A stretch of DNA of 64,000 nt from Pseudomonadota bacterium (GTDB lineage: Bacteria; UBA10199; 2-02-FULL-44-16; JBDRGF01), in assembly GCA_043818055.1 (NCBI GenBank), contig JBDRGF010000075.1:10078-74077 (forward strand), given 5' to 3'. Below are positions 735 to 19,584 of this stretch, piece after piece. The notes beneath the pieces were generated by a model. That model was not told where the DNA came from. It made no database searches and saw only the letters and a list, made by a program, of their open reading frames with translations. The translations under genes were made by a program, and so were the position numbers. How positions within the stretch are numbered: the first letter of the stretch is position 1; every line of letters begins with the position of its first letter.

Positions 735-768
735 TCCAAAATCCTGGATCGGAATCCGGGATTTTGGA
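735..768 (+). promoter_or_regulatory. Paired 14-bp imperfect palindromes (putative bEBP enhancer/UAS), operon 1
   Basis: TCCAAAATCCTGGA (735-748) and TCCGGGATTTTGGA (755-768), 20-bp period; same arrangement at 11216-11249. Confidence 0.75.
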
Positions 769-845
769 CAAAATTTTTCATCATAAATATACTAGAAAAA
801 AATCGACCTGTTTATATTTCAACAACTTAATTCCCAAAACAACTT

Positions 846-861
846 TGGCACAATAATTGCT
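846..861 (+). promoter_or_regulatory. Sigma54 -24/-12 promoter, RiPP operon 1
   Basis: TGGCAC-AATAA-TTGCT matches the TGGCAC-N5-TTGC consensus, ~60 bp upstream of the first precursor. Confidence 0.85.
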
Positions 862-922
862 ATAGAGATTTTCGAAGCTCGAGCAAAAACAAATTAACCA
901 ATAACAAAGAAAGGAGAGGAAA

Positions 923-1015
923 ATGGAAGCATTAAAAAAGGGCATTACCGAAATTGAAATCGTCACAGAAGGCTCTGAAGAAGAGATGCTTTGGGGAGTT
1001 GTTGGTGGTAAGTAA
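923..1015 (+). CDS. RiPP precursor peptide A1, 30 aa: MEALKKGITEIEIVTEGSEEEMLWGVVGGK
   Basis: Hand translated; AGGAGAGG RBS; paralog of the next ORF; directly upstream of rSAM genes; too short for the ORF track. Confidence 0.88.
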   Translation: MEALKKGITEIEIVTEGSEEEMLWGVVGGK

Positions 1016-1044
1016 ACCAAAAACAATTTAAAAAGGAGAGAAAA

Positions 1045-1143
1045 ATGGAAACGTTAAGAAAAGACATCAATGAAATTGAAGTTGTCACAGAAGGTTCCGA
1101 AGAGGAGATGCTTTGGGGCGTTGGCGGCAGCAAGAACAATTAA
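1045..1143 (+). CDS. RiPP precursor peptide A2, 32 aa: METLRKDINEIEVVTEGSEEEMLWGVGGSKNN
   Basis: Hand translated; AAGGAGAG RBS; VTEGSEEEMLWGV identical to A1 despite synonymous codon changes. Confidence 0.88.
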   Translation: METLRKDINEIEVVTEGSEEEMLWGVGGSKNN

Positions 1144-1154
1144 TGAATTAATCG

Positions 1155-1191
1155 TGTATGGGGGAGTCAAACTTGCGACTCCCCTCATACA
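1155..1191 (+). terminator. GC-rich stem-loop after the precursor genes (attenuator or mRNA stabiliser)
   Basis: TGTATGGGGGAGTC / GACTCCCCTCATACA inverted repeat; no U-tract. Confidence 0.6.
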
Positions 1192-1202
1192 TCATATCTA
1201 CT

Positions 1203-2549
1203 ATGAAAAAACTACTATTAAATAAAAATGTTATTATCAGGGATGAAAGATCATTTTGGTTGATGTTTAATCCTAATAATGGAGCTACTGTTAAATTGAA
1301 CAATGATATTGGTAGTCATATCAAAAAGACACTAGATAATGATGAAAAAAAATTAAACATACCAAACATCAGCGAAAGAACGATCGATGTTTTAAACAAG
1401 GAAGGATTTCTAATAAAAGATGGATGTAATAAAGAAGTCTCCCTGAACAATCGCGTTCAAATCGGTGAAAGATGCAATTGGGTGGTTGGCCCTCAGATAG
1501 AATTCAGTTCAAAAATCTCTCCCGTAGGGTTGCTTTGGGAGATAACAAACATGTGTAATCTGAATTGTGTTTATTGTTTGCCCAATGCAAAGGAAAAAAG
1601 AAAAAACAACAAAGAGTTATCAGCTAATGAATTGAACACCATAGTCGACAATATCATAAGGGCAAAGGTTTGCAGGGTGACGATATCGGGCGGTGAGGCG
1701 TTGCTTAGAAAAGATGATATGTTTCAGATAGCCAGAAAATTAAAATCTGCAAACATAATGGTGGGAGCTATTTCGAATGGATTGATCATTGACGAAAAGA
1801 TGGCAGATGAGATTAAAGAATTGGGAATTCTCATGGGCGTTAGTTTGGATGCTCCGAAGGGAAATATCAATTGTATAACAAGGGGAAAAGGCGTTTTTGA
1901 AAAGGCTCTGACTGCTATTAGGTTGTTGAAAAAAAGAAAAATTCCATTTAATGTGATATCTACAGTTACCAATATCAACTTCGACTACCTTCCAGAATTA
2001 TTTCTGTTGCTCAGGTCTATAGGAGTTACCAATATCGGCCTTCAGGATTTAAAACCATCAAATCCGGATGTGTACGAAAAATTTAAACTTACAAGAGAAC
2101 AAGAGCTAAAAATAAATGACATGTACGCATATCTTAAATCAACTTATCCGGAGATATGCTTTAATGATAACGAATTGAGAATCTTTTCAGGATTGGTTGA
2201 TAAAAATGGATGCGAAGACAAAACGATAATGAGGTGTTTGGCAGGCACAGTTACTGGATATATCAATAGCGAAGGTGACATGTTTCCATGCACAAGTTTA
2301 AAAAGCTTAAAAATGGGGAATGCTGTTGAGGATGAAATTACACAGATGTGGCAGCATTCAGAAGCAATGAAAAAGCTAAAGAAAATGAAAAATCAAACTA
2401 CAGATGTATTAAGTGGTTGTGATCAAAGCTGTCCCATCAAGAAAACTTGCGATGGGGGCTGCCGAGGAGAAGCCTTTTATTTAAATGGAGATTGGAGTTC
2501 CTTGCATCCTAGATGCTTGAAGATATTAAGATATGAAAATAAAATTTAA
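1203..2549 (+). CDS. Radical SAM/SPASM peptide maturase (PqqE/MftC/AlbA-like), possible N-terminal RRE
   Basis: CNLNCVYC, SGGE, SPASM CLAG..GDMFPC and CDQSC..CDGGCR..C; ~100 aa N-terminal extension. Start 1203 preferred because 1158 lies in the hairpin. Confidence 0.88.
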   Translation: MKKLLLNKNVIIRDERSFWLMFNPNNGATVKLNNDIGSHIKKTLDNDEKKLNIPNISERTIDVLNKEGFLIKDGCNKEVSLNNRVQIGERCNWVVGPQIEFSSKISPVGLLWEITNMCNLNCVYCLPNAKEKRKNNKELSANELNTIVDNIIRAKVCRVTISGGEALLRKDDMFQIARKLKSANIMVGAISNGLIIDEKMADEIKELGILMGVSLDAPKGNINCITRGKGVFEKALTAIRLLKKRKIPFNVISTVTNINFDYLPELFLLLRSIGVTNIGLQDLKPSNPDVYEKFKLTREQELKINDMYAYLKSTYPEICFNDNELRIFSGLVDKNGCEDKTIMRCLAGTVTGYINSEGDMFPCTSLKSLKMGNAVEDEITQMWQHSEAMKKLKKMKNQTTDVLSGCDQSCPIKKTCDGGCRGEAFYLNGDWSSLHPRCLKILRYENKI

Positions 2550-3564
2550 CACATTTGATTTTCTGATCACAAATGCATGCGACAAAAGATGCTCGATATG
2601 CTGCACCAATCCGCATGCCATGAATGAAATCCAGCATTTAAAATTCAATGATTTTTGTGGGGTTGTCGATTGTATCGAAAAATACTTAGAAGAAAAAAAC
2701 GAAACAGGCAACTGGGGGATTTCGGGGGGAGAACCCTTTATGTATAGTGATCATGAGGTGGGAAAAAATTATACGCTGGTTGATATTGTGGAATATCTTA
2801 GCACAAAGAAATTTATAAATAGTGTTTCCATCAGAACGTCAGGCTTCGATATAAATTCAAAACAAAAATTGATTTTTGATGCATTAGAGAAACTCAGAGC
2901 ACGCAAATTTATCACTTTTACTACTAGCTACAATTTATTTCAAAAAGGAGACATCAACGAAAGATTGAAGTGGATTTTACCAATATGGCTGGAATCTCAA
3001 GATAATCTTGAGATTCAAGTTATATATAATAAATCCAATTATCAAAAGACCTTGGATGGCTTAAATCAGTTGCTAAAGACGGCAAATTTACTTGTCGATA
3101 AATCACAGACCATAAAAATCTTGCAGGAAAGATTGCACAAGTCAAATTATTATAGCTGGTCTATCGATGGAAAGAGAGTGGATATCAAAACATACCCGGC
3201 GTATTCTCATGGGAAAATTGATGGTGAAGAGTTTTTTGAGTTCAAGACAGCAAAATGCGTTTCACTATCAAAAGCGGATTCAAACGCTGTCTTAGTCGTT
3301 AATTTTGATGGAACGCTACATCATTGTTGTAATCCGTATTATAGTTTTAAAAGACGGTTTTTTTCACCAAAGATAGAAGGTCTTTTAAGTGGAGGAATAG
3401 CATTGGAAGATATCGCCAATTTGTTTTCAGATGGTATGGAAAGGGTTCTGCTTGAGCCAAAAATAAAATATAATCTCCAGAGAGATTATTGCGATATGTG
3501 TTCAGTACTACTCTTTGGACCTGTAATTACAGCAGAAGGAAAGTTTTGTGAAAAACCAAATTGA
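2533..3564 (+). CDS. Second radical SAM protein (twitch/SPASM-like C-terminus)
   Basis: CDKRCSIC motif, SGGEP, C..VVNFDGTLHHCC and terminal CDMC. Confidence 0.8.
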   Translation: MKIKFNTFDFLITNACDKRCSICCTNPHAMNEIQHLKFNDFCGVVDCIEKYLEEKNETGNWGISGGEPFMYSDHEVGKNYTLVDIVEYLSTKKFINSVSIRTSGFDINSKQKLIFDALEKLRARKFITFTTSYNLFQKGDINERLKWILPIWLESQDNLEIQVIYNKSNYQKTLDGLNQLLKTANLLVDKSQTIKILQERLHKSNYYSWSIDGKRVDIKTYPAYSHGKIDGEEFFEFKTAKCVSLSKADSNAVLVVNFDGTLHHCCNPYYSFKRRFFSPKIEGLLSGGIALEDIANLFSDGMERVLLEPKIKYNLQRDYCDMCSVLLFGPVITAEGKFCEKPN

Positions 3565-4969
3565 ACAATTGATCAGCTATTTTCCTGGCGATTATGTCGA
3601 AGCCGCGGTTCAGCATAAGATGGTAAACTCATTCTCTTTGCTAAATGGAAAAGGAGATGGAACTGATTTCAGCGGGACAAAAACTTCTGCGAGAGTGACT
3701 TTGTACAGGGGTGGACAAAGGCTTCACCTGCCGATCAGAGAAATAAATGGCAGAATTTCATTTTCGGATTTAAAAGATAAGATTTTTAATTCTCATTTCG
3801 ATAATAAATTTGATGTATATTATAATAAAAACGGTTTTCAAAGGCTCCAAAAGAAATCTAAGAATATACTCCGAGATAAAGAGGCTTTTTACTTAACAAA
3901 ATGCAAGTTGCCTTTCAATTCAATCAACAACAACACAAAAAGAGAGATATTTGCAGATAGATTGATAAAATGTGATAGGTGTAAGCCATCCTTTGTCGAT
4001 CTGATAATTTTTTATCAGGATTCTATGACAGAAACCTGCTATTATAATTCCAACAATTTCTATCATAACAGAGTGGATAGCATGATTGAATTCTCCGGTT
4101 TTCTTAAATATGAGAGAAAACTATATCCAATTTTTTCGCACAACGAAATGGCAGGATTGGAAGTTTTGGTTGATTATGTTTTTGGGAATGGATTTGAAGA
4201 AAAGATCGAGATGATAAAAGTATTTAAGAATGCATGGGCTACAAAAATAAAGTCGGGAATCTATAATGTGATCTTGGACCCAACGCTTGGTGCGGGCTTA
4301 ATTCACGAAGCATTTGGTCATACTTGTGAGGCGGACATCTCATTCAGTAAAAATGTTAAAGGTCGAAGGGAGTTATTTGCCAAATTTAGAAATGAAGACA
4401 TCACTATTGCCGATGATCCAACAATTGCTGAAAAGGGGTTTGTCTATATTGATGACGAAGGGGTTATGGCTAAAAAAAAATATCTTGTTGAAAAGGGAGT
4501 TCTTAAATCCTGCATGCATTCAATATTTACAGCTACAAACAATAATTCAGAAGTTATGGGAAATGGCAGAACATCTGATGCGAGCCAAATTCCAATTCCA
4601 AGGATGACAAACACTTATATCGAGCCAAAAAATATCAGTCTGACAGAAATGTTCAGTTCCCTTGACAATGGATTGTATCTCAAAGGTAACATTGGAGGTG
4701 GTAAAACAAACGGAAGAAAGTTTTCTTTAAATGTTGAACAAGGATACATTGTAAAAAAGGGGAAAATAACAGGGAGCCCTATCTCAAATCTTGTCATAAA
4801 GGGAGATTGTTTTGCTACGATCAATAATATTGTCAAAATAGGAAATGATTTAACATTTGTGAAAGGTTTTGGAGGATGTTCAAAAAAAGGACAAAACAAT
4901 CTTCCAGTGTCGGGTGGGTCTCCTCATCTTATGGTAAAAAATGTTTTTGTAACGCATGTTGAAAGTTGA
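3548..4969 (+). CDS. tldD: TldD/PmbA family metalloprotease (TldD-type)
   Basis: HEAFGHTCEAD zinc motif, DDEG, GNGR..PIPRMTNTY, GCSKKGQ; GTG start. Confidence 0.88.
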   Translation: MKNQIEQLISYFPGDYVEAAVQHKMVNSFSLLNGKGDGTDFSGTKTSARVTLYRGGQRLHLPIREINGRISFSDLKDKIFNSHFDNKFDVYYNKNGFQRLQKKSKNILRDKEAFYLTKCKLPFNSINNNTKREIFADRLIKCDRCKPSFVDLIIFYQDSMTETCYYNSNNFYHNRVDSMIEFSGFLKYERKLYPIFSHNEMAGLEVLVDYVFGNGFEEKIEMIKVFKNAWATKIKSGIYNVILDPTLGAGLIHEAFGHTCEADISFSKNVKGRRELFAKFRNEDITIADDPTIAEKGFVYIDDEGVMAKKKYLVEKGVLKSCMHSIFTATNNNSEVMGNGRTSDASQIPIPRMTNTYIEPKNISLTEMFSSLDNGLYLKGNIGGGKTNGRKFSLNVEQGYIVKKGKITGSPISNLVIKGDCFATINNIVKIGNDLTFVKGFGGCSKKGQNNLPVSGGSPHLMVKNVFVTHVES

Positions 4970-4974
4970 TGTAA

Positions 4975-6948
4975 ATGAATATGAAGATACTCTTAGTCAA
5001 TCCATATTGGTCCATAGTTTCTAAATATACTCCTTATAGTTTATTGCAATTGGGGTCATATATCAATGCAAAGACAATTCATAAAGCAGAAGTGTTAGAT
5101 CTCAACATTGAATTACATGATGATATGTACAATCCTCACATTCTTATTGAAAAGGCTTGTAATTTGGTTTTGCAAAAGGATTTTGACATATTAGGGATTT
5201 CGGTCACCACTATAGACCTTCCGTTTACAGTCAGCTTTACCAAAAAATTTAACAAATTGTGCAATAAGCCAGTTGTTTTAGGAGGGATTCATGCAACTCT
5301 TGCCCCAGATGAGTTATTTTCACTTTGTCCAGTTGATTACATTGTTCGTGGAGAGGGAGAGATAACTATTTCCAACCTTCTGGATAATTTGGATATAATG
5401 AACAATAAAAATCTTAAGGACATTATGGGTCTTTCTTATCGTGATGGGAGTGCGATAGTTCACAATAATAACAGAAAAGTAATTTCCGATCTTTCTATCC
5501 TGCCTCTAGTGGATTATCAACTCATAAAACCATTGAAACATTATTTTATCAACAAACTTAAAAAAAGTTATATCATGTGCAGCAGGGGATGTGGATACAA
5601 TTGCAAGTTTTGTTCAGGCAGTCGAATATGGATGAAACAGCGCAGATTTCCCATTGATAGAATATTGAATGAAATCAAATTTCTAAAAGATTCCGGATCC
5701 GAGTTCATTTCCATCCAGGATGATTGTTTGACTATGAAGCGCTCCTGGTTTTTGGAGTTGGCTGAAGGCATTGGAAAAATAGGCATTAATTGGGGATGTT
5801 TGAGCAGGCTCGACCGCATTGATGAAGATATGCTTGATACAATGAAATCAAGCAGGTGCAAAGAGGTCTATTATGGCATAGAGTCGGGTAGCCCAAGGGT
5901 AAGAAAATTTTTGGAAAAAGGACTGATGTTTTCAAATGAAATAATTATAAAAAAAGTCAAAGACACTTTGAAAAGGGGAATTAATCCAATTTGCTCTTTT
6001 ATGACAGGCATACCGACTGAAACTGAAGAAGAGTTCAATGAAACGGTTAATCTGGCCGTTGAAATTAAAAGGTGTGGTGCAAAACCTCAACTCAACCTGC
6101 TCACTCCACTTACTGGGACTAGACTCAAAGAAGAATACAAAGACAAAATTATTAAATATGACAAGTGGGAGAAAATAGGTTTTGCAGACATTTTTGCAAA
6201 GGATCAACATTGGCTATTCAACTATCTTCTGGATGAGTTGAAGGATTATCTTCCGGACTATTATTTGTTCAAAAATCAAATGCCGCTTAATAGATTTGTT
6301 TCAAAGTATATGAAAGCCAGAAAAGAGCTTTCCCTCGAGAGCAAAAGCAACAAGATGTTTTTTCTAGATAGAACAGAAGATGAGATATTGGTGCTCAATG
6401 GTGAAAGGTTGCGTGTCGATAAAAGCAGTTTTATAGAATTAAAACTCGAATGCGGCATGCTTGATGAGTACAGAGCTCAGCGCAATAAGCTTTCTTCTAA
6501 TATCATTTTTATTCAATTTAAATATTCATCCTTCAAGTGCAATATTATTCCTGAAACAAAGGAATTTTTAACAGAAATCTTAAAAGAAATTAATTCTGGG
6601 TATCGTATAATTATATTAAATCCCCTGCCGCGTTGTTCACTGTCGGATGAAGCGACGAAACTGTTACGTGAGATAACGCTCCCTCATAATTGTCTTTGGT
6701 GTTCAAATCTTTTTTATAAATGTTTGGATAAGATAAAAATGTGCTCAGCCATAGGGGATGATGTTGAGCTCAAGGTTCCATTTGAACACATAGATAGCAG
6801 GAATAGAATATATCGCTATTTTGTAAAAGAAACTTTGGATAAAAATATAATCAGTGATAAAAAGTGTAGTGAATGTTCAATGCAACGAGATTGCACTATG
6901 CTTTGCATAGGTAGAGGTGATCGACAAAACAATGAGAGTTTTGCATGA
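4975..6948 (+). CDS. Cobalamin-dependent radical SAM enzyme (class B methyltransferase-like) with Cys-rich C-terminal extension
   Basis: B12-binding N-terminus (LGGIHAT, GEGE), SRGCGYNCKFC, GIESGS; C-terminal CLWC and CSECSMQRDCTMLC. Confidence 0.88.
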   Translation: MNMKILLVNPYWSIVSKYTPYSLLQLGSYINAKTIHKAEVLDLNIELHDDMYNPHILIEKACNLVLQKDFDILGISVTTIDLPFTVSFTKKFNKLCNKPVVLGGIHATLAPDELFSLCPVDYIVRGEGEITISNLLDNLDIMNNKNLKDIMGLSYRDGSAIVHNNNRKVISDLSILPLVDYQLIKPLKHYFINKLKKSYIMCSRGCGYNCKFCSGSRIWMKQRRFPIDRILNEIKFLKDSGSEFISIQDDCLTMKRSWFLELAEGIGKIGINWGCLSRLDRIDEDMLDTMKSSRCKEVYYGIESGSPRVRKFLEKGLMFSNEIIIKKVKDTLKRGINPICSFMTGIPTETEEEFNETVNLAVEIKRCGAKPQLNLLTPLTGTRLKEEYKDKIIKYDKWEKIGFADIFAKDQHWLFNYLLDELKDYLPDYYLFKNQMPLNRFVSKYMKARKELSLESKSNKMFFLDRTEDEILVLNGERLRVDKSSFIELKLECGMLDEYRAQRNKLSSNIIFIQFKYSSFKCNIIPETKEFLTEILKEINSGYRIIILNPLPRCSLSDEATKLLREITLPHNCLWCSNLFYKCLDKIKMCSAIGDDVELKVPFEHIDSRNRIYRYFVKETLDKNIISDKKCSECSMQRDCTMLCIGRGDRQNNESFA

Positions 6949-9900
6949 AAAGGATATATACAGAAAGATTCTACATTCTTTCGGTTGCTGTCATCATCAT
7001 TCTGGCGGGTATCTATTACTCCCTAAGAATCCCCATAGAGTTATATCCCAACGCCACTCAGACGAAAATAACAGTCCAAACTCATTATAAAAGTCTATCT
7101 CCTTTCGCCTTTAAAGATCGTTATGGAGATTTGATAGAAAAAGAATTGAATGGAGAAGGCGAATTTGAAGAGGTAGATTGTAAATATCAATACGAATATG
7201 CAATTTGCAGGGGAAAGTTGCCGTTCGGTTCAGATGATCATGTAATTTTGGAAAGGGTAAAAAACAAGCTTGAACCAATTTTTTTGTCATTTCCCGCTGA
7301 ATGGAAAGAGGCAGAGGTAAACTTTGGCGATTCCAACAAGGGAGTTCTTATAATAGCATTATACTCAAAAAATATACCTCTGAAAAAGGTCTATGATGAG
7401 ATATCGCCATCGATCAATTCGTTCCTTTCGACTCATCCCGATGTCAGTGTCGGTGAAGTTTCAAATCTTTTTGAAAAAAAGATTTCAATAAGCATAAAAC
7501 CAAATGTTGAAAATAAAATCACCAAAGAAATGATCTTTAATCAACTTAGTTCTTCAAACAATGATATTAAAACCATTGGAAACATTTCCATTGAAGGAAA
7601 TATTCTTTCAATAGAAGCAAGTTCAAAATTGATAGAAAGCCTTGATGATCTCGAAAATTTCAAGCTTTTGACCAAACAAAATGAGATACTAAAGCTGAAA
7701 GATATCGCCGACGTAAAAATCATTCCAGTCGAACCTAATGAATTGTTTAAAGGAAATAATCAAAATTCACTCATAGTGTGGGTTGCTCCTCAGGCAAAGG
7801 CTAACCTGGTTAATTTTAGCGATTCCATCGAATCCAAAGTCAAAGCAGAGATTAAACGTTTCAACGGCGAAGTTACTGCTCAAACGCTTTTGAATCCGGC
7901 ATCTTTTATCAGGAACGCGGTTAAAGACATTTTGTATTCATTGATTATCAGCGTGATACTCTCTGGAATTGTCGTCTTCTTGTTTTTGGGATCCTTGAAA
8001 TATTCCACAGTTATAAATCTAGTCATGCCCTTGTCGTTATTTGGCACTATTTTATTCATGTATATCTTAGGTATAGAAGTGAACCTCATTTCAATGGGGG
8101 CAATGGCCATTGCAATAGGCATGGTTGTCGATGCATCTATAGTGGTAATAGAAAATATTTTTAGGCACCTGCAAAATACGCATCCGAAGGATTATTCCGA
8201 GAAACTTGGAATCTATGTCAAAGCTGTATCAGAAGTTAAAGGTGCACTTTTTTCGTCAACGATAACGACCATATGTGTTTTCGTGCCACTGCACTATGCC
8301 TCTCCTCTTGTCAGCGCCATCTTGGGAGATGTTGCGACGGTGATGACGCTCAGTCTTTTTCTTTCCATGATAATGGCCATCTTTTTTGTTCCTTCAATCC
8401 TTTTGTGGATAAATCCAGATATCACGCAGATGGAAAATTTAAAGCACAAGTCCAATTTTCTAAATAGATGTTTTACAAATATTCAAAAATACTACTCAGA
8501 GGCAGTTAAATGCTTTATCACAAATAAAGTCATCAATGTCCCGATTATAATAACATTGTTAATCCTCTTTTTACTATCTTTATATTTGGCTGTTTACAAG
8601 ATTGACCACGAACTTATAGCAACACCGACATCAGATATAATTGTTTTTCATAGGGGTAATTCAAAAGACGTTGACAGCATTGCTACGCAGGAAAAGGATT
8701 TTCACGATACTGAGCGGGAGGTGTTTAAGCTAACATCTGACTATGTTGATTTTACGCTTACCGTCTTGCGCAAGGATTTAGCGATGATGTTGTTGCACAT
8801 CAAAAATGAAAAATACAAAGAAACATTGAAACAACTTCTCATAAAAAAATATAAGAGCTCAGAAAAATATGAATTCAAGGTAGTCGATTGGGTTCCAACG
8901 CAATTTGAAATACCAGACCCACCACAGATGAAGGTGTTGATCGGCGGTGCAAGCCCAGCTGAAAGCAAATTGATTCAGGCTGAGGTGGAAAAATTCATTT
9001 TAGCAAACAGCAAAACGGTAAGGTCTTATTCCATTCCGACAAGCCTAACTTCGGATGAGATAATCGTTGATATAGACGTTGAAAAACTGGGTTATCAAAA
9101 CAGAATTCACGGAACATCTTATTCAAAAAAACAAATCCTTGATATCTTGAATTTTCACGCGAAAGAAAAATATTTAAGGCACATGAAGTTTGATGGAGCA
9201 AAAACAGCGGTATTTCTTGAATCGGACTATCCCAAATTAAAGAGAGAAAAGATTTCAAGCTTTAGCATACCGTTTGGGAACGGATCGCTAACGCTGGATA
9301 AAATCGCAGACATAAAATTAGTCAAATCAGATAGTGAGATTCACAGCTACAATGGTGGTATGCAATATGAAGTAGATGCCTTTTTTTCGGACAAGGGCTT
9401 CACATATTTCGATGAATTTTCAACAACATTAATTCATAAATTTGGTAAAGAGAAAATATCAACACATTATCCTTATGGACTGATAAACGATACAATAAAC
9501 AAACTCTTTTGGGCATTGGCTGTTTCCTGTTTGCTCGTATTCCTTGTGGTTTTTTTACAATACAGGAACATCTATTACACCTTAATAATATTGATGGCAA
9601 TTCCTACTAGCGTGATTGGAGCTCTCATTTCATTATATATATTCAAATCAACTCTTGGCATGAACGCGCTTTTGGGTCTCATTTTGCTTTCAGGCATAAG
9701 TGTCAACAGCACAATCATCATCATAGATTTTTACGATAAAATAGGCTCTGACGACATCGCTGACGGAATTGTTCAAACGATGAACTTGAGATTAAAGCCA
9801 ATTTGCATGACTGCCTTTACCACTGTCATAGCAATGGTACCCATCGCTGTAAAATTATTCAGCGGTTCAGAGGCGCTGCAGCCGCTGGGAATAACGATAA

Positions 9901-11352: not shown

Positions 11353-11510
11353 ATATATTTCAAAAAGTTAAGCAACAAGTTGTAATAGAGTGCGATAATG
11401 GTGGGGTAATATAAAGTTACGTAATGAAGTTTTTATATTCAAATTGAAATTGAAATTTATTTTCTAATGAAACATGACTTACCGTAATGATAATCAATGG
11501 TAAGAGGCAT

Positions 11511-12731
11511 ATGGTAAATAATAAAAACCTTTTACAGATATCCTACTTTATTAATCAATTAGGTACTTATACAAGCTATCTTGCCATCATTGCAATAGCT
11601 CGGGAACACAATAATTCTATAAATTCTATTGCTATGGTATTGGGTGCTTCAGCGGCAGGGACAATGGTTGGGTGGCTTTTGACAATGAAATATCTTAAAA
11701 ATGTGCACGCAAAACTTCTCCTTTCGTCATCGTTGATATTGTCAGGTTTGATGATGGTATCAATTTTATGTCTGGTTAATTGGTGGCTAGTTGTTGCTGC
11801 TTTTTTTGTGTTAGGAATGTGTACCAATACCTACATGTCATCATTCTATACTTTAATTCCCAGGATGATCAAAAAAACAGATGTGCCTAATATTAATCAG
11901 AACATTCAGATATTGTCTCAATTAGCCATAGTTATAGGTGCGATTTTGGGCGGCATTTTGTTAGATCGGTTTGGGTTTAGGCTTCCGCTATTTGTTGATA
12001 TTATTTCTTATTTATTAGTTGGGGTTGTTTATATGTGTCTTTCCCATAATAGATTTGTAATTTTATCAGCAGAGAAAGCGAATGATAATACGAAAGACCA
12101 AGAAGTGGTACGTCCAAAATGTCCATTTCAAAGGACATTGTTATTTTCTCCATTGGTGTTGGCTTTTCTGGTGGCTTTTGCTGCAGGTGCATATAATGTG
12201 ATTGAAATTCCATTTTTCACCGATATTTTAGGGTTGCCCTATCGCTACATTGGATTTTATTTTTCAATTTCGGTATTGGGAATTCCAGTTTTTCATGCTT
12301 TGGTACGTAAAAAGATGTTGCAAATGGAGTCGCTGCGATCCCTGTTTATCGGTATTGCATTAGGTGGTTTGGTTTATTTAGTATGGGGTATGCAGAGCAG
12401 CTTATGGATAACTGGTCTTTTGTTAATTTTATTCAGCCTCTTTCAATTAGTTATATTCACTTCAGTGAATAATTATCTACATGCCCATGTATTGGAAGAT
12501 AATAAACTTCAAACGGTTTTTTCAACTTTGCAATTTGGGAGACGTGTGGCAGCTCTGCTGGGTAAATTAGCGATTCCCTTTATTGTAGGTTTTGCAGGAG
12601 AAAAATTTTCTTTTTCAGTGCTAGGTGTTATTATGATAATTGGATTGATTGTTGTTTTGATAACCAAAAGAGTGATAGAAGGAAGTATGAGTATTGTTGG
12701 AGATTTACAACAAAATGCCGCCGAATATTAA
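11511..12731 (+). CDS. MFS transporter
   Basis: ~12 hydrophobic segments, GGILLDRFG motif; start after AAGAGG RBS (alternative 11487). Confidence 0.8.
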   Translation: MVNNKNLLQISYFINQLGTYTSYLAIIAIAREHNNSINSIAMVLGASAAGTMVGWLLTMKYLKNVHAKLLLSSSLILSGLMMVSILCLVNWWLVVAAFFVLGMCTNTYMSSFYTLIPRMIKKTDVPNINQNIQILSQLAIVIGAILGGILLDRFGFRLPLFVDIISYLLVGVVYMCLSHNRFVILSAEKANDNTKDQEVVRPKCPFQRTLLFSPLVLAFLVAFAAGAYNVIEIPFFTDILGLPYRYIGFYFSISVLGIPVFHALVRKKMLQMESLRSLFIGIALGGLVYLVWGMQSSLWITGLLLILFSLFQLVIFTSVNNYLHAHVLEDNKLQTVFSTLQFGRRVAALLGKLAIPFIVGFAGEKFSFSVLGVIMIIGLIVVLITKRVIEGSMSIVGDLQQNAAEY

Positions 12732-12750
12732 ATTAGAGAAAGGAGGAGGT

Positions 12751-12831
12751 ATGAAGCAAATGGATTTGCTTGGATTGGACAACATTGAAATTCAGCAAGA
12801 AGGATGTTGCCCTCAGGGAATTGACGGATAA
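12751..12831 (+). CDS. RiPP precursor peptide A3, 26 aa: MKQMDLLGLDNIEIQQEGCCPQGIDG
   Basis: Hand translated; strong AGGAGGAGGT RBS; GLDNIEIQQEG matches the A1/A2 leader; followed by hairpin, methyltransferase and rSAM. Confidence 0.82.
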   Translation: MKQMDLLGLDNIEIQQEGCCPQGIDG

Positions 12832-12864
12832 TACATCAAGAATATTCATATTATTATGAATCTA

Positions 12865-12902
12865 TTATCCGGGGGATCTCATTGCTTTAGTCCCCCGGAT
12901 AA
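12865..12902 (+). terminator. Stem-loop after precursor A3
   Basis: Perfect 12-bp stem TTATCCGGGGGA / TCCCCCGGATAA; no U-tract. Confidence 0.6.
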
Positions 12903-12925
12903 CATGATTCAAAAGGAGTGATGCG

Positions 12926-13936
12926 ATGAATCCTGTAAGTCAGATGAGAAGTTGGATTAATTCTATGCACATTGCTAAGGCTGTTAATATTGGTGTTGAG
13001 GTGGGATTATTCGGTGTGATTGCTGAAATAAAATGTCCAACAACAGTTCAAGAACTAGCCAGGCAAGCTTGCTGTGATCAGGGATATGTAGAATCCTGGA
13101 TACATGTTATGCAAGCGGCAGGAATTATTGATGTTGATCAAAATGGTCATCTGTCGTTTGTTAGTGACTGGAAGGAAGCCCTTACAGATCGAGATAGTGA
13201 TAAATATGTGCCGCCGATGATGGAATGTCATTTCGCTATTGCAGATACCTATCCGAGATTTGCAAAATTTTTTAGAAATGGAAATTGCATGCATTCAAAT
13301 GAATTCAGTGAACCACTGCTGGTCGGTATTGCTGCGGATGCAGTGCGATTTGCAAACTATTTTTTGCATGTAGCTGTGGATAAGATTCCAGATTTGAAGC
13401 TAAAACTGGAAGAAGGAATAGATGTTTTAGACGTGGGTTGTGGTGGCGGGCAATTTCTTTCAAAAATAGCAACACAATTTCCAAAGTCGCGCTATGTAGG
13501 TATCGACCCGTTAGATAAAGTTATTGATATGGCTAGGGAGGAGGCCAAACATTATAAAGTAGAGAGTAGAGTAGATTTTATTGTCGGTTGCGGTTCCGAA
13601 ATCAAAAAGGAATGTGCTGATTTAATAATTCTTAATGAAGTACCTCACGAAATGGATGCTAAAGTAAGACAACCGGTGCTGGATGCTTGTTGTAAAGCAT
13701 TGAAAAAGGATGGTCTTTTGTTTCTGGTTGATATTTTGGCCCCCGAAAATGCCGGGGATTATGTACGGCCTAATTTCTTATTATCATCACTAGTTCAGTT
13801 TTTTGAAAAACCATGGGGTTCAAAATTGTTGACATACTCAGAATTGAAAATCTTAATTAGAAATGCAGGTTTTTCGGATTTGACACACTTGGTGTCAGCA
13901 GATGATGTAGTTGTCGCATATACAAAACCCATATAG
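12926..13936 (+). CDS. Class I SAM-dependent methyltransferase with N-terminal winged-helix domain
   Basis: VLDVGCGGG motif I, GID, ALKKDG; N-terminal wHTH/dimerisation-like region. Confidence 0.85.
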   Translation: MNPVSQMRSWINSMHIAKAVNIGVEVGLFGVIAEIKCPTTVQELARQACCDQGYVESWIHVMQAAGIIDVDQNGHLSFVSDWKEALTDRDSDKYVPPMMECHFAIADTYPRFAKFFRNGNCMHSNEFSEPLLVGIAADAVRFANYFLHVAVDKIPDLKLKLEEGIDVLDVGCGGGQFLSKIATQFPKSRYVGIDPLDKVIDMAREEAKHYKVESRVDFIVGCGSEIKKECADLIILNEVPHEMDAKVRQPVLDACCKALKKDGLLFLVDILAPENAGDYVRPNFLLSSLVQFFEKPWGSKLLTYSELKILIRNAGFSDLTHLVSADDVVVAYTKPI

Positions 13937-13944
13937 ATATATTA

Positions 13945-15177
13945 ATGAAAAAAAATTATCATAATATTTTAGTTGATGGAAAAAAAATTCGTTTTTATCC
14001 CGATGAAATGTTATTTTATAAAGGCAGTTCATTTCCGAAGGATGTGGATAAAGATAGAAATGTGAGGCCATCCGTTTGTAAATCGGTAAAGATCGCAAAC
14101 AGCAGGAAACTACAACTGGCGTTGACAATCACTAAGAGCTGCAACATGAAATGTACATATTGCTATGATAAGAAAAATATGAATATTTCTTCTAATTCGA
14201 AAAATATGCATTTTAGTACACTATGCGATGCAGTGAATAAGTTTTGTAATAGCAGGATTGGTAATTACAATATACATTTCATAGGTGGAGAGCCGCTTTT
14301 ATGTCTGGATTTAATCAAACAAACTGTAGATTATTGCAATAAGAAGGCTGCAATTGATAGCTCGGTATTTACATATAGTATTTCGACTAACGGTACAATA
14401 ATTGACAAAGCCATAGCAAAGTATTTTTCCGAAAATAAAATTAAAATAAGATTAACCTTTGATGGTGTAGAAGAATCTCAGAATGTCAATCGACCGATGC
14501 GCAATCGGGAGCAGAGCTTTTCTCATGTGGTACGATCGTTATCAAATCTAAGAAATGCAAGTTGTGATTTTAGTGTTATATCTGTACTTCATCCCAATTT
14601 TCTTCATAAAATGCTTAAAGCTTTTGAAAATATAATTCAATACAATCCAAATGCGATAAAATTTGTTCCTCTAATAAATATAGATGCGCTTGGATGTAAG
14701 TATGTCAGTGATCATAGTGTCATGTTTGCAGAATCTCTTCGGAATATCGCTAATCAATTGATCAGTAGAAAAGATGAAAAAACAATTATGAAAATTAAGA
14801 ATATAAGCGTGTATTTGCCTTATATTCATAATCGTATAGCGAACATCAAGGGGTGTATTGCAGTTAATAAACAATCATATGCAGTGAATGTAGATGGTTC
14901 TGTGTATCCATGCTCAACCTTTGTTGGTATAGATACTCATCGTTTGGGGATGATAAATGATTATGAACTCAATCCTAATTCCATAAAATGTGAATCAATA
15001 ACGACGAGATGTTTATCCTGCTGGGCACGAACATTATGTCCTGGAGTATGTGCTTATACTGCCGATAATAATTCAGCATGCTCATCAGCAATGAATTGTG
15101 AGTTTATAAAAGGAGAGATTACTGTTGCTTTGGAAGTATATAGCAAGTTGTATCCTCATAAAATTAGAAGGGAGTGA
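13945..15177 (+). CDS. Radical SAM/SPASM protein (anSME/ranthipeptide-maturase-like)
   Basis: CNMKCTYC, FIGGEPLL, STNGT, SPASM C..VNVDGSVYPC and CLSCWARTLCPGVC..C. Confidence 0.88.
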   Translation: MKKNYHNILVDGKKIRFYPDEMLFYKGSSFPKDVDKDRNVRPSVCKSVKIANSRKLQLALTITKSCNMKCTYCYDKKNMNISSNSKNMHFSTLCDAVNKFCNSRIGNYNIHFIGGEPLLCLDLIKQTVDYCNKKAAIDSSVFTYSISTNGTIIDKAIAKYFSENKIKIRLTFDGVEESQNVNRPMRNREQSFSHVVRSLSNLRNASCDFSVISVLHPNFLHKMLKAFENIIQYNPNAIKFVPLINIDALGCKYVSDHSVMFAESLRNIANQLISRKDEKTIMKIKNISVYLPYIHNRIANIKGCIAVNKQSYAVNVDGSVYPCSTFVGIDTHRLGMINDYELNPNSIKCESITTRCLSCWARTLCPGVCAYTADNNSACSSAMNCEFIKGEITVALEVYSKLYPHKIRRE

Positions 15178-15186
15178 CGAATTGCC

Positions 15187-16371
15187 ATGAATAACCTAAT
15201 AAAAAAAGCATTTCAACTTTGCTGTTTTTTAATTATCATACTAATACCATTTTATATTCAAGCGGATCAAAATATTACAATAGCGCTGGTGAATAATTTT
15301 TCGGATTTTAGATCTCCATGTGGTGATCCTAAAGGAGAAAACTTTTTGAATGCTTTGAATTTAGCATTGGAAGATTTTTTAAAAGATCATAAAAAATATT
15401 CAGATCAAATAATACTTAGAAAATATGATTATGGTAATTCACCACTTAATACGGAACGTATTACATTAGAAGCTGTTCGCTCCGATGCAGTAGCATTAAT
15501 TGGATATCCATGCTCTAGTTTTGCTCTTCTTGCTGCTCCAATAGCTGAGGCGCACAATGTTGCTATGATTACGCCATCGGCTACAATTGATTCATTAACC
15601 GAGAGTCGTGAATATGTATATCGCGCTTCATTTAGGGATGAAGATCAAGCTAAAGTTATGGCGGAATTTCTGGCAAATGATCTGGATAAGAAAAAGGCTG
15701 TAGTTATTGTTAATCAGAATTACCCATATTGCACTAATTTATCAGAGCAATTCCAGCATTATTTTAAAAAATATGGAGGAAAGATTGTAAAAGTGTTTAA
15801 CACGCTTTCGAGCCAAAAAAGCTATAATAAAGAAGTAAATGAAATGAATCACTTATCATATGATGTAGTTTTTATTCCTAATCATGAAATGGAGAGCGCT
15901 ACTATGGTTAAAGAAATATATAATTTGAGTATGGAAACCACTGTTGCTGGTGGAGACGGATGGGGGAATTTGTATGGGTATATTTTTCCTGCTATAGTTG
16001 GAAATAAAAAAATTGATGCGTATGCAATTGCTCATTGGAATCGTGATTCTGTTGACACTAGTTCAAAAGAATTTCAGAAAAGGTATTATAATCGTTTTGG
16101 ATTTTATCCAAACGATAATTCAGCATTAGCTTATGATGCTATGAGTCTGCTTTTACATGCAATATCTAAGGCGAAAAAAATAAATAGGAAAGAAATCAAC
16201 GCAGAGCTCAAATCAATCCGGTCTCATTTCGGTGTAACTGGGAGATTCTCTTATAATCGAGGTAATGGAACGCCTTCAAAAAATGTTTATATAGTAAAAT
16301 ATCCTCAACCCAATTTGTCTCATGAAGGTGATCGTAGATTTGAGCATTACAAGAGTGTTATCGTAAAATAA
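15187..16371 (+). CDS. Periplasmic binding protein (LivJ/branched-chain amino acid-binding family)
   Basis: Signal peptide; ALIGYPCSS, ITPSAT, GGDGW, ALAYDA, GVTG motifs; no ABC permease or ATPase nearby. Confidence 0.85.
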   Translation: MNNLIKKAFQLCCFLIIILIPFYIQADQNITIALVNNFSDFRSPCGDPKGENFLNALNLALEDFLKDHKKYSDQIILRKYDYGNSPLNTERITLEAVRSDAVALIGYPCSSFALLAAPIAEAHNVAMITPSATIDSLTESREYVYRASFRDEDQAKVMAEFLANDLDKKKAVVIVNQNYPYCTNLSEQFQHYFKKYGGKIVKVFNTLSSQKSYNKEVNEMNHLSYDVVFIPNHEMESATMVKEIYNLSMETTVAGGDGWGNLYGYIFPAIVGNKKIDAYAIAHWNRDSVDTSSKEFQKRYYNRFGFYPNDNSALAYDAMSLLLHAISKAKKINRKEINAELKSIRSHFGVTGRFSYNRGNGTPSKNVYIVKYPQPNLSHEGDRRFEHYKSVIVK

Positions 16372-16372
16372 T

Positions 16373-18154
16373 ATGCAGCTTAAATTGAGTCATAAAATAA
16401 ACTTCTATTTTATTTTAATCATGCTTCTGGTGACGCTATGTTCTGTTGTATTTATTTTTTACATGGCAAAAGTTGAACGCAGTAAGCAAATCGACATGGC
16501 GGTTTCTAAAATGAAAAATATAGCTGCTATTGAATCAGAAGATATTATTGCTCAAATTCTTTTTCATTCATACTCGTCACTCGATCTAATAAGTAAAAAA
16601 ATTCTAGAAGAAAACAAAAATATATTTGTTGATATTCGACTTAATGATTTTGTTACAGGAAATGAATTGAAATATAAATATTGTATTCCTGATAATAATG
16701 GAGTGTGCTACAACAGGGATGATGATGTGCTTCAATTCGTATATTCCTTGAATTATGGAGGTAAGGATTTAGGAAGCCTCATCATGGCACAACAGATGGG
16801 TTCTTTCACTATGCTGATTAAGCCATCAGTATCAGTAATTGTATTATTTGCATCCTTGGTAACAATAGCGATGCTCGGAATGTTTATGTTCTTTATCAGA
16901 AAAAATATCAGTCAGCCAATCAATATATGTATTCGATCATTTTCAGAAATTAAATCTGGGAAGAGAAAAAATATTCCAAAAATGAATACTCGCGATATGA
17001 ATATACTAGTTGAAAATATTAATTCACTTATGGAAGATTTAGGAATATTTCAAAAAATTGCTGAAAGAAATACACATTTAGCCGCCATAGGACAAATATC
17101 ATCCCACGTCGCACACGATATGCGATCGCCGCTGTCTGTCATACAGGGATATCTGCGGGGAAATCAAAAAAACATGAAACTTCTCGAAGCAGCAAAGGGA
17201 AGCGCAAATAAACTGAATAACATGGCCGATGAACTATTGGATTATGCCAAGGCCTCGAAGATTGAGCCGGTTGCAACATCGTTAAAAAGCCTCGTTGAAA
17301 CCACCGTCAGCAAAGAGGTTAAAAATATCGCCGATGAAAAGGGTGTAAAGCTTATTTATGATGTGAGGGATGATGTTGTTGCTAAGATAGATCATTACCG
17401 AATGGAACGTGTCCTGACCAACCTCATCACGAACGCCGTTCAGGCGATTGATGCGGAATCAGGTGAGGTAAAAGTTTCTGTTAAATCAGACAACGAAAAT
17501 CTCAAAATAACAGTTACAGATAATGGCAGGGGAATAAGCAAAGAAGATCAGAAAAAGATTTTCGATAGCTTTTTCACAAAGGGAAAGATGAGAGGGACAG
17601 GCCTTGGGCTCTCATATTGCAAAAACGTCATAGAGGCACATGGGGGCGCTATTGCAGTAGAGAGTGAAGTTGGAAGAGGAACAGAGTTTTCGATTAATAT
17701 TCCATCTTGTATTACAACACCACATGCCACATGCTACATACCACATGCTGTCCCTAGCCATCAGACATCAGCGGTCAGCGGTCAGCCGACAAAAGGCGAG
17801 TTGGACTCGGATAACGACATCCTCGTCGTCGATGATGATGTGGGAATAATTTTAATATGGTGTGGCCTGATAGAGAAGAAAACAGGAAAACCGCCCATAA
17901 CCGCAAAGAGCCCTGAAGAGATGATGAAAGCCAAAATCGATTACAGCAGGGTATCAAAGGCGATTGTTGACTATCAATATGAGGGAAGTAAGCTCACCGG
18001 CCTCGATGTCGTACAATTTTTGAAAGAGAAGGGCGTGCAGGTGATCCACATGTGCACGGGGATGTATCACGATGAAGAATTGCAATCGCAGGCGAGAAAG
18101 TTAGGCGTTGCTTCGATCATACCTAAGCCTATTAGCGCCGATACGAATATTTGA
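16373..18154 (+). CDS. Membrane hybrid sensor histidine kinase (TM-periplasmic-TM, HisKA, HATPase, REC-like)
   Basis: AHDMRSPL H-box, NLITNA, DNGRG, GTGLGL, C-terminal ILVVDDD receiver. Confidence 0.9.
   Translation: MQLKLSHKINFYFILIMLLVTLCSVVFIFYMAKVERSKQIDMAVSKMKNIAAIESEDIIAQILFHSYSSLDLISKKILEENKNIFVDIRLNDFVTGNELKYKYCIPDNNGVCYNRDDDVLQFVYSLNYGGKDLGSLIMAQQMGSFTMLIKPSVSVIVLFASLVTIAMLGMFMFFIRKNISQPINICIRSFSEIKSGKRKNIPKMNTRDMNILVENINSLMEDLGIFQKIAERNTHLAAIGQISSHVAHDMRSPLSVIQGYLRGNQKNMKLLEAAKGSANKLNNMADELLDYAKASKIEPVATSLKSLVETTVSKEVKNIADEKGVKLIYDVRDDVVAKIDHYRMERVLTNLITNAVQAIDAESGEVKVSVKSDNENLKITVTDNGRGISKEDQKKIFDSFFTKGKMRGTGLGLSYCKNVIEAHGGAIAVESEVGRGTEFSINIPSCITTPHATCYIPHAVPSHQTSAVSGQPTKGELDSDNDILVVDDDVGIILIWCGLIEKKTGKPPITAKSPEEMMKAKIDYSRVSKAIVDYQYEGSKLTGLDVVQFLKEKGVQVIHMCTGMYHDEELQSQARKLGVASIIPKPISADTNI
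17714..17790 (+). repeat. Heptamer tandem repeats in the kinase interdomain linker
   Basis: CACATGC-type then CAGCGGT-type 7-mers, in frame (TPHATCYIPHAVPSHQTSAVSGQP). Confidence 0.65.
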
Positions 18155-18177
18155 ATTCGCTGAGATGGGAGGCAAAG

Positions 18178-19584
18178 ATGAACAAAGATTATACGATACT
18201 CTGTGTTGACGATGATGAGAATTTTCTTGTTCAGCTGGAGAGTATATTTGCGGATTACACAGTTTTCAAAGCGACATGCATGGATGATGCCCTGTCGATC
18301 ATAGACCGGAACGATATCAATACAGTTCTATTGGACATCAGCCTCAACGGCGAGGATGGTCTGGATGGGTTGAACCTGATTAAAAAAAGAAATTCGTTCA
18401 TCGATGTCGTGATGGTGACAGGCCATAGGGACACCGAATATATAGTGAAGGCGATTCAAAGCGGCGCGAGCGATTATGTGTTGAAGCCTGTGGATCAGGG
18501 AGCGTTGCTCGCGTGCGTGGAAAAATCGAAACAATCCAAAAAAGAAAAGGAAAAATATAATGCTCTGCTCTGTGAGTTGAATTCAGCGGATATCGCTTCG
18601 AGGATTGTCGGCAGGAGCGCGGAGCTCTCAAAAATTCTGAATATAGCAAAGAAGGTGAAGGGACATCACAGGGCAAACATCCTGATCGAAGGAGAGAGCG
18701 GCACGGGAAAGGAACTCCTGGCGCGCTACATCCACAGGCTTGAGGAGAATACAAGGCGACCGTTCATTGCGATCAATTGTGCTGCTATTCCGGACAATCT
18801 TATAGAATCAGAATTGTTTGGCCACGAAAAAGGAGCTTTTACCGGTGCGATTGGCAAGAAGATAGGGAAATTCGTTCTTGCTGACAAAGGTGATATCTTC
18901 CTTGATGAAATCAGTTCACTAAAACCTGATCTGCAGGCAAAATTATTGCGCGTGTTTCAGGAAAAGGAATTTTGTCCCCTTGGCGGCAACGATCCAGTGA
19001 AATCGGATTTCAGGGTGATCGCCGCGACCAATGAAAATCTGGAGGAGCTGGTGAATTCAGAAAAGTTCAGGCTCGATCTCTATCATCGCATGAAGATCGT
19101 CAATCTCTACATGCCTCCACTTCGCGACCGGAAGGATGATATAGAAGAGCTTGCTCAACATTTCCTCAGAAAATATTCAGATGGGAAAAGGGGTTTGAAA
19201 ATTGCAGATAAAGCAATCGCAATATTAAAGGAATATTCCTGGCCCGGAAATGTGAGAGAACTGGAAAATATAATACACCGGGCAATCGTCCTCGCTGAGG
19301 GCTATATGCTTTCGGAGAAGGATTTTTCGCATTTGCTAACCCCTTCCTCAGCCTGCATCAATGAAGGGCAGTCCACGCCCTTTATACAATTGTTTTCGGA
19401 GATATCGCCCAAACTCTCCGGCAATGTGATGCCGCTTAAGGATTATGTCATGAAGGCCGAGACCGAATATTTAAAAGAGGTGCTCGATCTCAAGGCCGGC
19501 AACAAAGACGAGGCAGCTGTTTCTCTCAAGATGAGCCGTTCGAGTTTTTATTCAAAATTGAAACAATGCGGTTTTTTAACATGA
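18178..19584 (+). CDS. NtrC-family sigma54-dependent response regulator (REC-AAA+-HTH)
   Basis: LCVDDD receiver, GESGTGKE, GAFTGA, FLDEI, WPGNVREL, C-terminal Fis-like HTH. Confidence 0.95.
   Translation: MNKDYTILCVDDDENFLVQLESIFADYTVFKATCMDDALSIIDRNDINTVLLDISLNGEDGLDGLNLIKKRNSFIDVVMVTGHRDTEYIVKAIQSGASDYVLKPVDQGALLACVEKSKQSKKEKEKYNALLCELNSADIASRIVGRSAELSKILNIAKKVKGHHRANILIEGESGTGKELLARYIHRLEENTRRPFIAINCAAIPDNLIESELFGHEKGAFTGAIGKKIGKFVLADKGDIFLDEISSLKPDLQAKLLRVFQEKEFCPLGGNDPVKSDFRVIAATNENLEELVNSEKFRLDLYHRMKIVNLYMPPLRDRKDDIEELAQHFLRKYSDGKRGLKIADKAIAILKEYSWPGNVRELENIIHRAIVLAEGYMLSEKDFSHLLTPSSACINEGQSTPFIQLFSEISPKLSGNVMPLKDYVMKAETEYLKEVLDLKAGNKDEAAVSLKMSRSSFYSKLKQCGFLT

Follow-up and report, generated by a model that had tools for sequence, protein, structure and literature searches.

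What do four radical S-adenosylmethionine (SAM) genes and three very small open reading frames (ORFs) make together at positions 735–19584 of the stretch of contig JBDRGF010000075.1 analysed here (the window, 64,000 nucleotides in all)? Every gene of at least 100 amino acids taken as real in this segment lies on the + strand, and comparison with Pfam and NCBIfam places a TldD-type protease, a methyltransferase and three exporters among these genes. The same gene set also holds a binding protein, a kinase and an NtrC-type activator, and there are two exact sigma-54 promoters upstream. These elements had been listed in a first-pass annotation of the DNA, and all proved to be in place on the + strand.

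The segment is most likely a real cluster for radical SAM-matured peptides that are ribosomally synthesized and modified after translation (RiPPs), drawn from a rare precursor and enzyme family. Two kinds of enzyme-modified small peptides are most likely made under a single dedicated switch, and there are good grounds for reading the locus as a two-operon RiPP cluster with a single sigma-54 regulon dedicated to it. What is said below on the chemistry, on the third peptide's function and on sensing is prediction. The precursors and the first maturase are as follows.

923–1015, + strand: precursor A1, 30 amino acids, MEALKKGITEIEIVTEGSEEEMLWGVVGGK; upstream AAAGGAGAGG; leader strand TEIEIVTEG, core ...MLWGVVGGK
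1045–1143, + strand: precursor A2, 32 amino acids, METLRKDINEIEVVTEGSEEEMLWGVGGSKNN; upstream AAAGGAGAGA; tandem paralogue of A1, core ...MLWGVGGSKNN
12751–12831, + strand: precursor C, 26 amino acids, MKQMDLLGLDNIEIQQEGCCPQGIDG; upstream AAAGGAGGAGG; leader DNIEIQQEG, core CCPQGIDG
1158–2549, + strand: maturase of the radical SAM/SPASM type, N-terminal domain putatively leader-binding (Pfam/NCBIfam, alignment, modelled complex)

The three small ORFs share several properties. An AGGAG-type Shine–Dalgarno site is found 6–9 bases ahead of each, and the leader motif IE[IV]..EG has six six-frame matches in the whole genome, three of which are precursors A1, A2 and C. In alignment the strand of precursor C is in the same register as those of A1 and A2. 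Codons 14–26 of A1 and A2 (VTEGSEEEMLWGV) differ at four codons, and all four changes are synonymous. The first-pass annotation held that the precursors fall outside recognised families, and this view is supported: no NCBIfam model matches any of the three, no protein of the cluster reaches a curated NCBIfam equivalog cut-off, and neither the precursor motif nor the cluster type was found described in a literature search that had most subscription-journal papers and supplements outside its reach.

The first SPASM enzyme shows the marks of its class, a CX3CX2C radical SAM cluster and seven invariant C-terminal cysteines (C360, C378, C421, C425, C431, C435 and C453) that include a C-x(2-3)-C-x5-C-x3-C run, and matches PF13186 at 31.5 bits (cut-off 21.5). 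Its best curated match is MftC (TIGR03962), at 135.3 bits where the cut-off is 265. As the protein has 448 amino acids in the database, the start may be the ATG at 1203. Relatives are few, about ten (33–37% identity) in a collection of 5.8 billion protein clusters and one among 60 related genomes. When one genome was scanned for each species, 44 loci came up, of which the 11 with a near-full-length match to the first SPASM enzyme (31–35% identity) were fetched; these are the related loci referred to below.

Nine of the 11 related loci contain small ORFs (13 in total) on the strand of the enzyme, with an acidic alternating strand as leader (e.g. DDIVEV, KEFEII, MIDILIE, DYEIV and VDIEVV) and a core of the [W/F]G-x-GG type. 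The core follows the strand by about ten residues and reads WGVGG, WGIGG, WGAGG, FGVGG or FGCVGA, and in locus L018 AAAGVGGHASGVGGGG; strand and core align in register with no gaps between them. A narrow form of the core pattern has 11 matches in the 404,292 six-frame residues of these loci, where 1.4 are expected at the rate of the window's own genome. All 11 lie on the enzyme's strand, and the one in L017 that falls inside a major facilitator superfamily (MFS) gene is probably due to chance. No precursor ORF was found in L013 or L016, either by regular expressions or in a listing of small ORFs with ribosome-binding sites. The first-pass annotation had taken the small ORFs to be real precursor genes and had named, as the outcome that would speak against this, homologous enzyme loci without such ORFs; with such ORFs at nine of 11 loci this outcome did not arise, and the reading is supported. 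In L016 the SPASM relative lies inside a non-ribosomal peptide synthetase–polyketide synthase cluster (3642–12101), whose condensation, adenylation, carrier and ketosynthase domains are joined by a hexapeptide transferase and a hydrolase.

In five of the 11 related loci, the gene directly downstream of the SPASM gene is a homologue of the second enzyme of operon 1.

2533–3564, + strand: second radical SAM protein, divergent and twitch-like, with CDKRCSICC, GGE and a Cys-bearing C-terminal part

The Pfam match of this protein is weak (23.9 bits; cut-off 29.5). The motif CDKxCxxCC (CX3CX2C), the GGE and an H-C pair are invariant in all six true members of its family, and its structural model has a radical SAM fold and, with a predicted local distance difference test (pLDDT) value of 63 and a predicted template modelling (pTM) score of 0.71, matches MoaA, ChlB, SkfB, EpeE and viperin. 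About ten members are known, all labelled hypothetical; two are from cultured Bradyrhizobium according to NCBI, and these may give a culturable route into the family. Two proteins first considered relatives, of 345 amino acids in L013 and 330 amino acids in L018, lack the Cys motif and were dropped.

Other genes accompany the related enzymes. MFS genes adjoin six of the 11 loci, resistance-nodulation-division (RND) pumps three, and S9 peptidases two (L013 and L015). Sigma-54-like promoters lie 62–101 nucleotides upstream of the precursor or the enzyme in L015, L018 and L021, by a relaxed pattern whose chance rate was not measured, and an NtrC-type gene adjoins L018. In L013, L014 and L019 a SPASM enzyme of the Cys-peptide type (best matches TIGR04463, Clo7bot and CefB) is encoded just upstream of the MftC-like enzyme, and the precursors of L014 and L019 read WGAGGC. 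The pairing of two enzyme types in the window is thus not a one-off, even if the enzymes concerned are not orthologous. As judged by sequence, a conserved module of precursor, SPASM enzyme with a putative RiPP recognition element (RRE), often a twitch-like partner, and MFS exporter is present in other uncultured bacteria. The module is rare, with about 12 members among 5.8 billion protein clusters, and has no curated name. It should be pointed out that the precursor and enzyme family is, as far as the searches reach, new, whereas the kind of system, leader-guided peptide maturation by radical SAM enzymes, is well known; the 'candidate new system' of the first-pass annotation therefore stands as a family and not as a kind of system.

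Are the two operons of the window under common control? The elements that bear on this are the following.

735–768, no strand assigned: upstream activator site 1, made up of the 14-bp palindromes TCCAAAATCCTGGA and TCCGGGATTTTGGA, whose starts are 20 bp apart
846–860, + strand: sigma-54 promoter P1, TGGCACaataaTTGC
11217–11250, no strand assigned: upstream activator site 2, made up of TCCAGAATTTTGGA and TCCAGGATTCTGGA at the 20-bp spacing of site 1
11337–11351, + strand: sigma-54 promoter P2, TGGCACatggaTTGC
15187–16371, + strand: secreted LivJ-type binding protein of the Peripla_BP_6 family (Pfam/NCBIfam), signal peptide recognised by eye
16373–18154, + strand: hybrid sensor histidine kinase, with two membrane segments recognised by eye and HisKA, HATPase and weak receiver domains
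18151–19584, + strand: NtrC-type sigma-54 activator with receiver, AAA+ and Fis-type helix-turn-helix domains

The promoter pattern TGGCAC-N5-TTGC occurs exactly twice in the 64-kb window, at 846 and 11337, where 0.06 occurrences are expected, and none of 100 shuffles contained two or more. The promoter-proximal palindrome begins 91 bp ahead of the −24 element in site 1 and 100 bp ahead in site 2. Both sites share the form TCCRRRATYYTGGA, and the tandem palindrome pattern, with up to two mismatches allowed, is found at these two places only in the 2,927,731-base genome; a reversed control gave no match. Each operon has the marks of sigma-54 dependence, with GG at −24, GC at −12 and a site some 100 bp further upstream, and the genome supplies both rpoN and an activator gene. 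Common control of the two operons, as the first-pass annotation proposed, is borne out by the shared upstream sites, which in this genome are unique to the two promoters. The palindromes are predicted binding sites for an activator, and from adjacency we infer that the adjoining binding protein, kinase and activator act on both promoters. Scans for other signals stayed at chance, with 71 sigma-70 promoters (68.6 expected) and 11 terminators (11.9 expected).

Two neighbours of this regulatory apparatus may be mentioned. A divergent 255-amino acid membrane protein with a TrkA-C domain is encoded on the − strand at 17–784, and its start codon region overlaps upstream activator site 1. Directly 3′ of the activator gene, at 19644–21914, are three tandem paralogues (257, 240 and 256 amino acids) with no Pfam or NCBIfam match.

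This raises the question of whether the operons are instead separate neighbouring clusters, with the adjoining kinase and activator in control of something else. The activator gene is host-like in guanine plus cytosine (GC) content (45%, against 33–39% for the biosynthetic genes) and is one of about 14 of the NtrC type in the genome, as such a reading would have it, but the tandem palindromes with their identical 20-bp spacing occur at no other place in the genome. Likewise, the operon 2 enzymes have no homologues in the related loci, yet A1, A2 and C share their scarce leader motif, and L013, L014 and L019 also combine an MftC-like enzyme with a SPASM enzyme of the Cys-peptide type. Separate clusters are unlikely on this evidence, and one regulon for both operons is the reading followed here.

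How the precursors would be recognised is suggested by modelling. A modelled complex of the whole first SPASM enzyme with A2 scored 0.75, and the best of three controls 0.01; as a rough guide only, with own alignments used, that level is attained by 116 out of 157 complexes of solved structure and by 2 out of 215 pairs that do not belong together. Runs agree in at least 78% of contacts, with a pLDDT of at least 59 for the partner. In the model the leader lies on enzyme residues 33–82, leader residues 10–17 (EIEVVTEG) contacting residues 43–48 and 75–82, and the core contacts the barrel at residues 173–336. The family profile aligns, from position 7–8, to the N-terminal domains of SuiB and TigE. 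The leader may dock on the N-terminal domain of the enzyme, although a pass of this kind shows likeness and not binding, and may reflect likeness here, as similar complexes have been solved (CteB, 5WGG; SuiB, 5V1T). A PqqD-like RRE fused to a maturase is an N-terminal domain of some 85–100 residues that takes up the leader as an extra beta-strand. Pfam shows no PqqD match in the last 217 residues of the B12 enzyme or in residues 1–57 of the PapB-like enzyme, both described below. In the proposed mechanism, the leader strand (N/T)EIE(I/V)VTE of A1 and A2 would be added as a beta-strand to the N-terminal domain of the SPASM enzyme, and the WGV(V/G)G core would enter the barrel.

There the first SPASM enzyme would abstract a hydrogen in the WGV(V/G)G motif. 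The best guess for the outcome is a C–C link from the Trp ring to the residue two places on, i.e. a three-residue cyclophane; cyclopropanation of Val and epimerisation are the alternatives. The second radical SAM enzyme would add a further modification. Triceptides have an aromatic-X-X triad, as W-G-V at the conserved site is, and their maturases (XyeB, GrrM/OscB, AmcB, YhhB) are SPASM enzymes with a leader-binding domain, which is putative in the first SPASM enzyme here. The first SPASM enzyme, however, scores 71.6 bits against the GrrM/OscB model (TIGR04261, cut-off 310) and 69.4 against that of AmcB (NF041718, cut-off 425). The His-Xaa-Ser system (HxsB and HxsC) likewise joins a SPASM maturase to a shorter second radical SAM protein; HxsC is the best curated match of the second enzyme, but a very weak one (30.9 bits; cut-off 267.9), and the precursors have no His-Xaa-Ser repeats. 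A Lys–Trp crosslink maturase (WgkB, NF050035) was considered and rejected, with 117.7 bits against 650; such maturases go with a conserved Trp and Lys in the core, and in the core stretch compared a Lys follows the motif in A1 and A2 only and is not conserved across the related loci.

Perhaps the SPASM enzyme is a cyclopropyl synthase of the TvgB/TigE kind, converting the Val or Ile of x-V-G-G to (methyl)cyclopropylglycine. The two have in common a SPASM enzyme with an RRE (putative here) and, as its target (predicted here), a short Gly-flanked Val or Ile motif, GVGG here and a TVGG repeat in TvgA (PMC9062424). TigE (8VPO; PMC10878394) is a structural database match that includes the N-terminal domain (E 6e-10 for the single protein, 7e-15 for the profile), but anSME and SkfB outscore it. 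Val or Ile occupies the motif in the window, L011, L012, L015, L017, L018, L020 and L021, whereas L014 and L019 have Ala. More telling is GYW, which PMC10878394 gives as strictly conserved in and specific to cyclopropyl synthases, its Tyr being a ligand of auxiliary cluster I. None of the 12 family members has it, the window protein reading GYI at 367–369. The motif here also differs in being single rather than repeated (L018, with two copies, is the exception), in usually following Trp or Phe, and in having a second radical SAM partner for its enzyme. With GYW missing throughout and Ala in some cores, the SPASM enzyme is not filed as a cyclopropyl synthase, and that identity is improbable.

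A further reading has operon 1 making an intracellular peptide-derived redox cofactor in the manner of mycofactocin or pyrroloquinoline quinone. The reason to think so is MftC, the best curated match of the SPASM enzyme, together with precursors that are short, acidic and Gly-rich. MftA is of the same character, and the mycofactocin precursor ends in Gly-Val-Tyr. None of the 15 aligned precursors here has a C-terminal Tyr, however, let alone Val-Tyr, and the 135 bits are half of the MftC cut-off of 265. The Pfam tables list no partner dehydrogenase and no MftB-, MftD-, MftE- or MftF-like gene, and exporters are present both in the window (RND and two MFS) and at six of the 11 related loci, which does not suit an intracellular product. 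A cofactor is thus quite unlikely, and an exported, enzyme-modified peptide is the preferred product of operon 1. That the small ORFs are chance frames, and that the radical SAM enzymes act on non-peptide substrates, is very unlikely, for short as they are and without an NCBIfam match, they have same-strand homologues at nine of 11 related loci, synonymous-only changes in the conserved part of A1 and A2, strong ribosome-binding sites on all three, and in A2 a partner for the enzyme that passes against controls.

The remainder of operon 1 would complete and export its product.

3548–4969, + strand: TldD-type HExxxH metalloprotease (HEAFGH; Pfam/NCBIfam), likely leader peptidase
4975–6948, + strand: B12-binding radical SAM protein, best match ApyD (157 bits; cut-off 750)
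6945–9998, + strand: RND permease (Pfam/NCBIfam); the cluster has no adaptor or outer-membrane gene
9995–11233, + strand: MFS transporter 1; the listed ORF begins at TTG 9803, with an ATG at 9995 that overlaps the stop codon of the RND gene

The protease is the only gene of the PmbA/TldD family found in the genome, which is 93.6% complete. By analogy it is a likely leader peptidase, and as a stand-alone TldD-type enzyme it would cut off the leader. A precedent is PbsP of the biphenomycin-like RiPPs, which according to PMC12257519 is a stand-alone HExxxH protease of TldD type, with no TldE partner and a B12 radical SAM enzyme in its cluster; that pathway has a multinuclear non-haem iron-dependent oxidative enzyme and Phe/Tyr chemistry, and the likeness to PbsP is one of description and not of sequence comparison. 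The leader protease appears to be interchangeable across the family. In L014 a related cluster encodes an Rce1-like, CAAX-type membrane protease (9923–10954), where the window has the TldD type and L013 and L015 have S9 peptidases. The B12 enzyme most resembles RiPP C-methylases in sequence and is likely a C-methyltransferase, as ApyD is (10.1101/2023.10.30.564719); it would C-methylate the operon 1 product. The RND permease, of which a 33% identical homologue adjoins the L015 cluster, and MFS transporter 1 would export that product.

Operon 2 contains precursor C and its own set of enzymes.

11487–12731, + strand: MFS transporter 2 (Pfam/NCBIfam)
12865–12902, + strand: RNA hairpin of 13 bp, lacking a U tract, from folding of the 94-nucleotide spacer that follows precursor C
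12926–13936, + strand: class I SAM methyltransferase whose N-terminal part is a winged-helix dimerisation domain (Pfam/NCBIfam)
13945–15177, + strand: PapB-like radical SAM/SPASM protein, CX2CX5CX3C; best curated match PapB (NF047865), 178.6 bits (cut-off 340)

The PapB-like enzyme has the invariant SPASM cysteines C304, C323, C356, C359, C365, C369 and C385 and is likely a thioether former. In its orthologue group, a full HMMER search found four orthologue-like representatives (P0013–P0016). A word-index search at E ≤1e-30 matched only the enzyme itself, a check of 92 further genomes from the phylum (E ≤1e-40) turned up no copy, and a metagenome scan with the P0013–P0016 alignment gave at least 80 loci, all of them distant (19–34% identity) among the matches listed. 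Precursor C, with CCPQGIDG as its core, offers both a CX4D and a CX5D and so the combination of Cys with Asp or Glu that marks PapB substrates. According to PMC9413430, PapB joins Cys to Asp and also accepts CX3D motifs that have been lengthened or shortened. A Cys-to-Asp thioether for precursor C fits this tolerance, and in CCPQGID the PapB-like enzyme would form it between the Asp side chain and the sulfur of one Cys. The PapB ranthipeptides (freyrasin; PMC9413430) are alike in curated match, CX2CX5CX3C and a Cys and Asp within an eight-residue core; the window's system differs in its score, in CX4D/CX5D instead of CX3D, in having at most one ring and no full RRE, and in a coupled methyltransferase. 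That methyltransferase would methylate the operon 2 product, and MFS transporter 2 would export it.

The hairpin probably stabilises or attenuates the transcript. The 94-nucleotide spacer folds at −31.6 kcal/mol (z −4.4), none of 200 shuffles being as good, and the structure was missed by the terminator scan.

Several points weigh against a dedicated two-operon RiPP system. The product has never been seen and none of the enzymes reaches a curated cut-off, and for these two reasons all of the chemical steps are guesses. Homologues of the B12 radical SAM enzyme, TldD, the methyltransferase and the binding protein were not found in the 11 related loci, so that these steps would be specific to the cluster in the window. 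The aromatic residue is not universal, as the L018 core is AAAGVGG...GVGGGG, and L014 and L019 have Ala as their central residue; a Trp crosslink thus leaves some members unexplained, and so does Val cyclopropanation. For precursor C the evidence is limited to its position, the shared motif and the ribosome-binding site. Pfam gives no PqqD/RRE match for the N-terminal 110 residues of the first SPASM enzyme. The PapB-like enzyme has about 55 residues before its core, which are modelled as three low-confidence strands and no helices; it may borrow the leader domain of the first SPASM enzyme. With some 14 sigma-54 activators in the genome, it is adjacency that links the NtrC-type gene to the palindromes, and the kinase is of the hybrid type, yet no Hpt protein is among the cluster's Pfam matches.

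The setting of the cluster in its genome suggests how it was put together. The biosynthetic stretch (735–17000) has a GC content of 35.7%, against 43.3% for the genome, where values of 36% or less are seen in only 2.8% of 5-kb windows. The exceptions are the MFS transporter 1 gene (41.9%) and the activator gene (45%), and the activator gene and the flanks are host-like. This suggests horizontal acquisition and a mosaic origin, in which acquired genes came to be combined with a regulator of resident-like character. The genome, from an uncultured groundwater bacterium, is in 166 contigs and is the sole member of its family among the genomes compared. Near-identical DNA is present in groundwater and biofilm metagenome runs. 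In one metatranscriptome run (X4), contigs of at least 99% identity cover parts of both operons, with some depth in 25 of 30 bins; DNA may be present in such a library and the comparison included no silent control stretch, so these contigs are not evidence of transcription and do not show starts or levels, and bins that are not covered carry no meaning. A joint in X4 that skips from 1356 to 8802 is probably an artefact, with only 21 letters on one side.

The organism is unusually rich in radical SAM enzymes, as the genome has further SPASM groups on contigs C3 (194–4466, three in tandem), C33 (49000–52100), C159 (34900–46500, four) and C128 (3995–5005), all of G000, and 11 additional B12-binding radical SAM paralogues. 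Among related genomes of the same order, G014 is the only one that has the first SPASM enzyme. A few kilobases from its cluster, on the contig of L021, are a 368-amino acid secreted protein and a hybrid histidine kinase (L010, 14495–18865), which echo the pair of binding protein and kinase in the window.

In the full mechanism proposed, the secreted binding protein and the hybrid kinase would feed the NtrC-type activator, which would bind the palindromes and turn on both operons. As the activator's own gene lies in operon 2, a self-reinforcing loop would follow. A bolder reading is doubtful: the paired radical SAM enzymes would install an undescribed modification on aromatic-Gly-x-Gly-Gly, which would make a new RiPP class, and the Cys–Asp peptide would serve as autoinducer. 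The operon 2 peptide, closed by a thioether and methylated, would then be secreted and read by the binding protein, kinase and activator, so that one RiPP would induce both itself and a second RiPP, with one leader code for the two.

Radical SAM enzymes that act on ribosomal peptides keep giving new C–C and C–S chemistry and new antibiotics, and the locus is a good lead for genome mining. The window has the richest version of the module seen: besides four radical SAM enzymes there is a stand-alone protease of TldD type, and a second type of peptide has the leader motif in common with the first. A single unique sigma-54 regulon, which includes sensor genes of its own, takes in all of these parts. 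Should the sensor respond to the product, an uncultured lineage would possess a loop of peptide autoinduction that runs through sigma-54.

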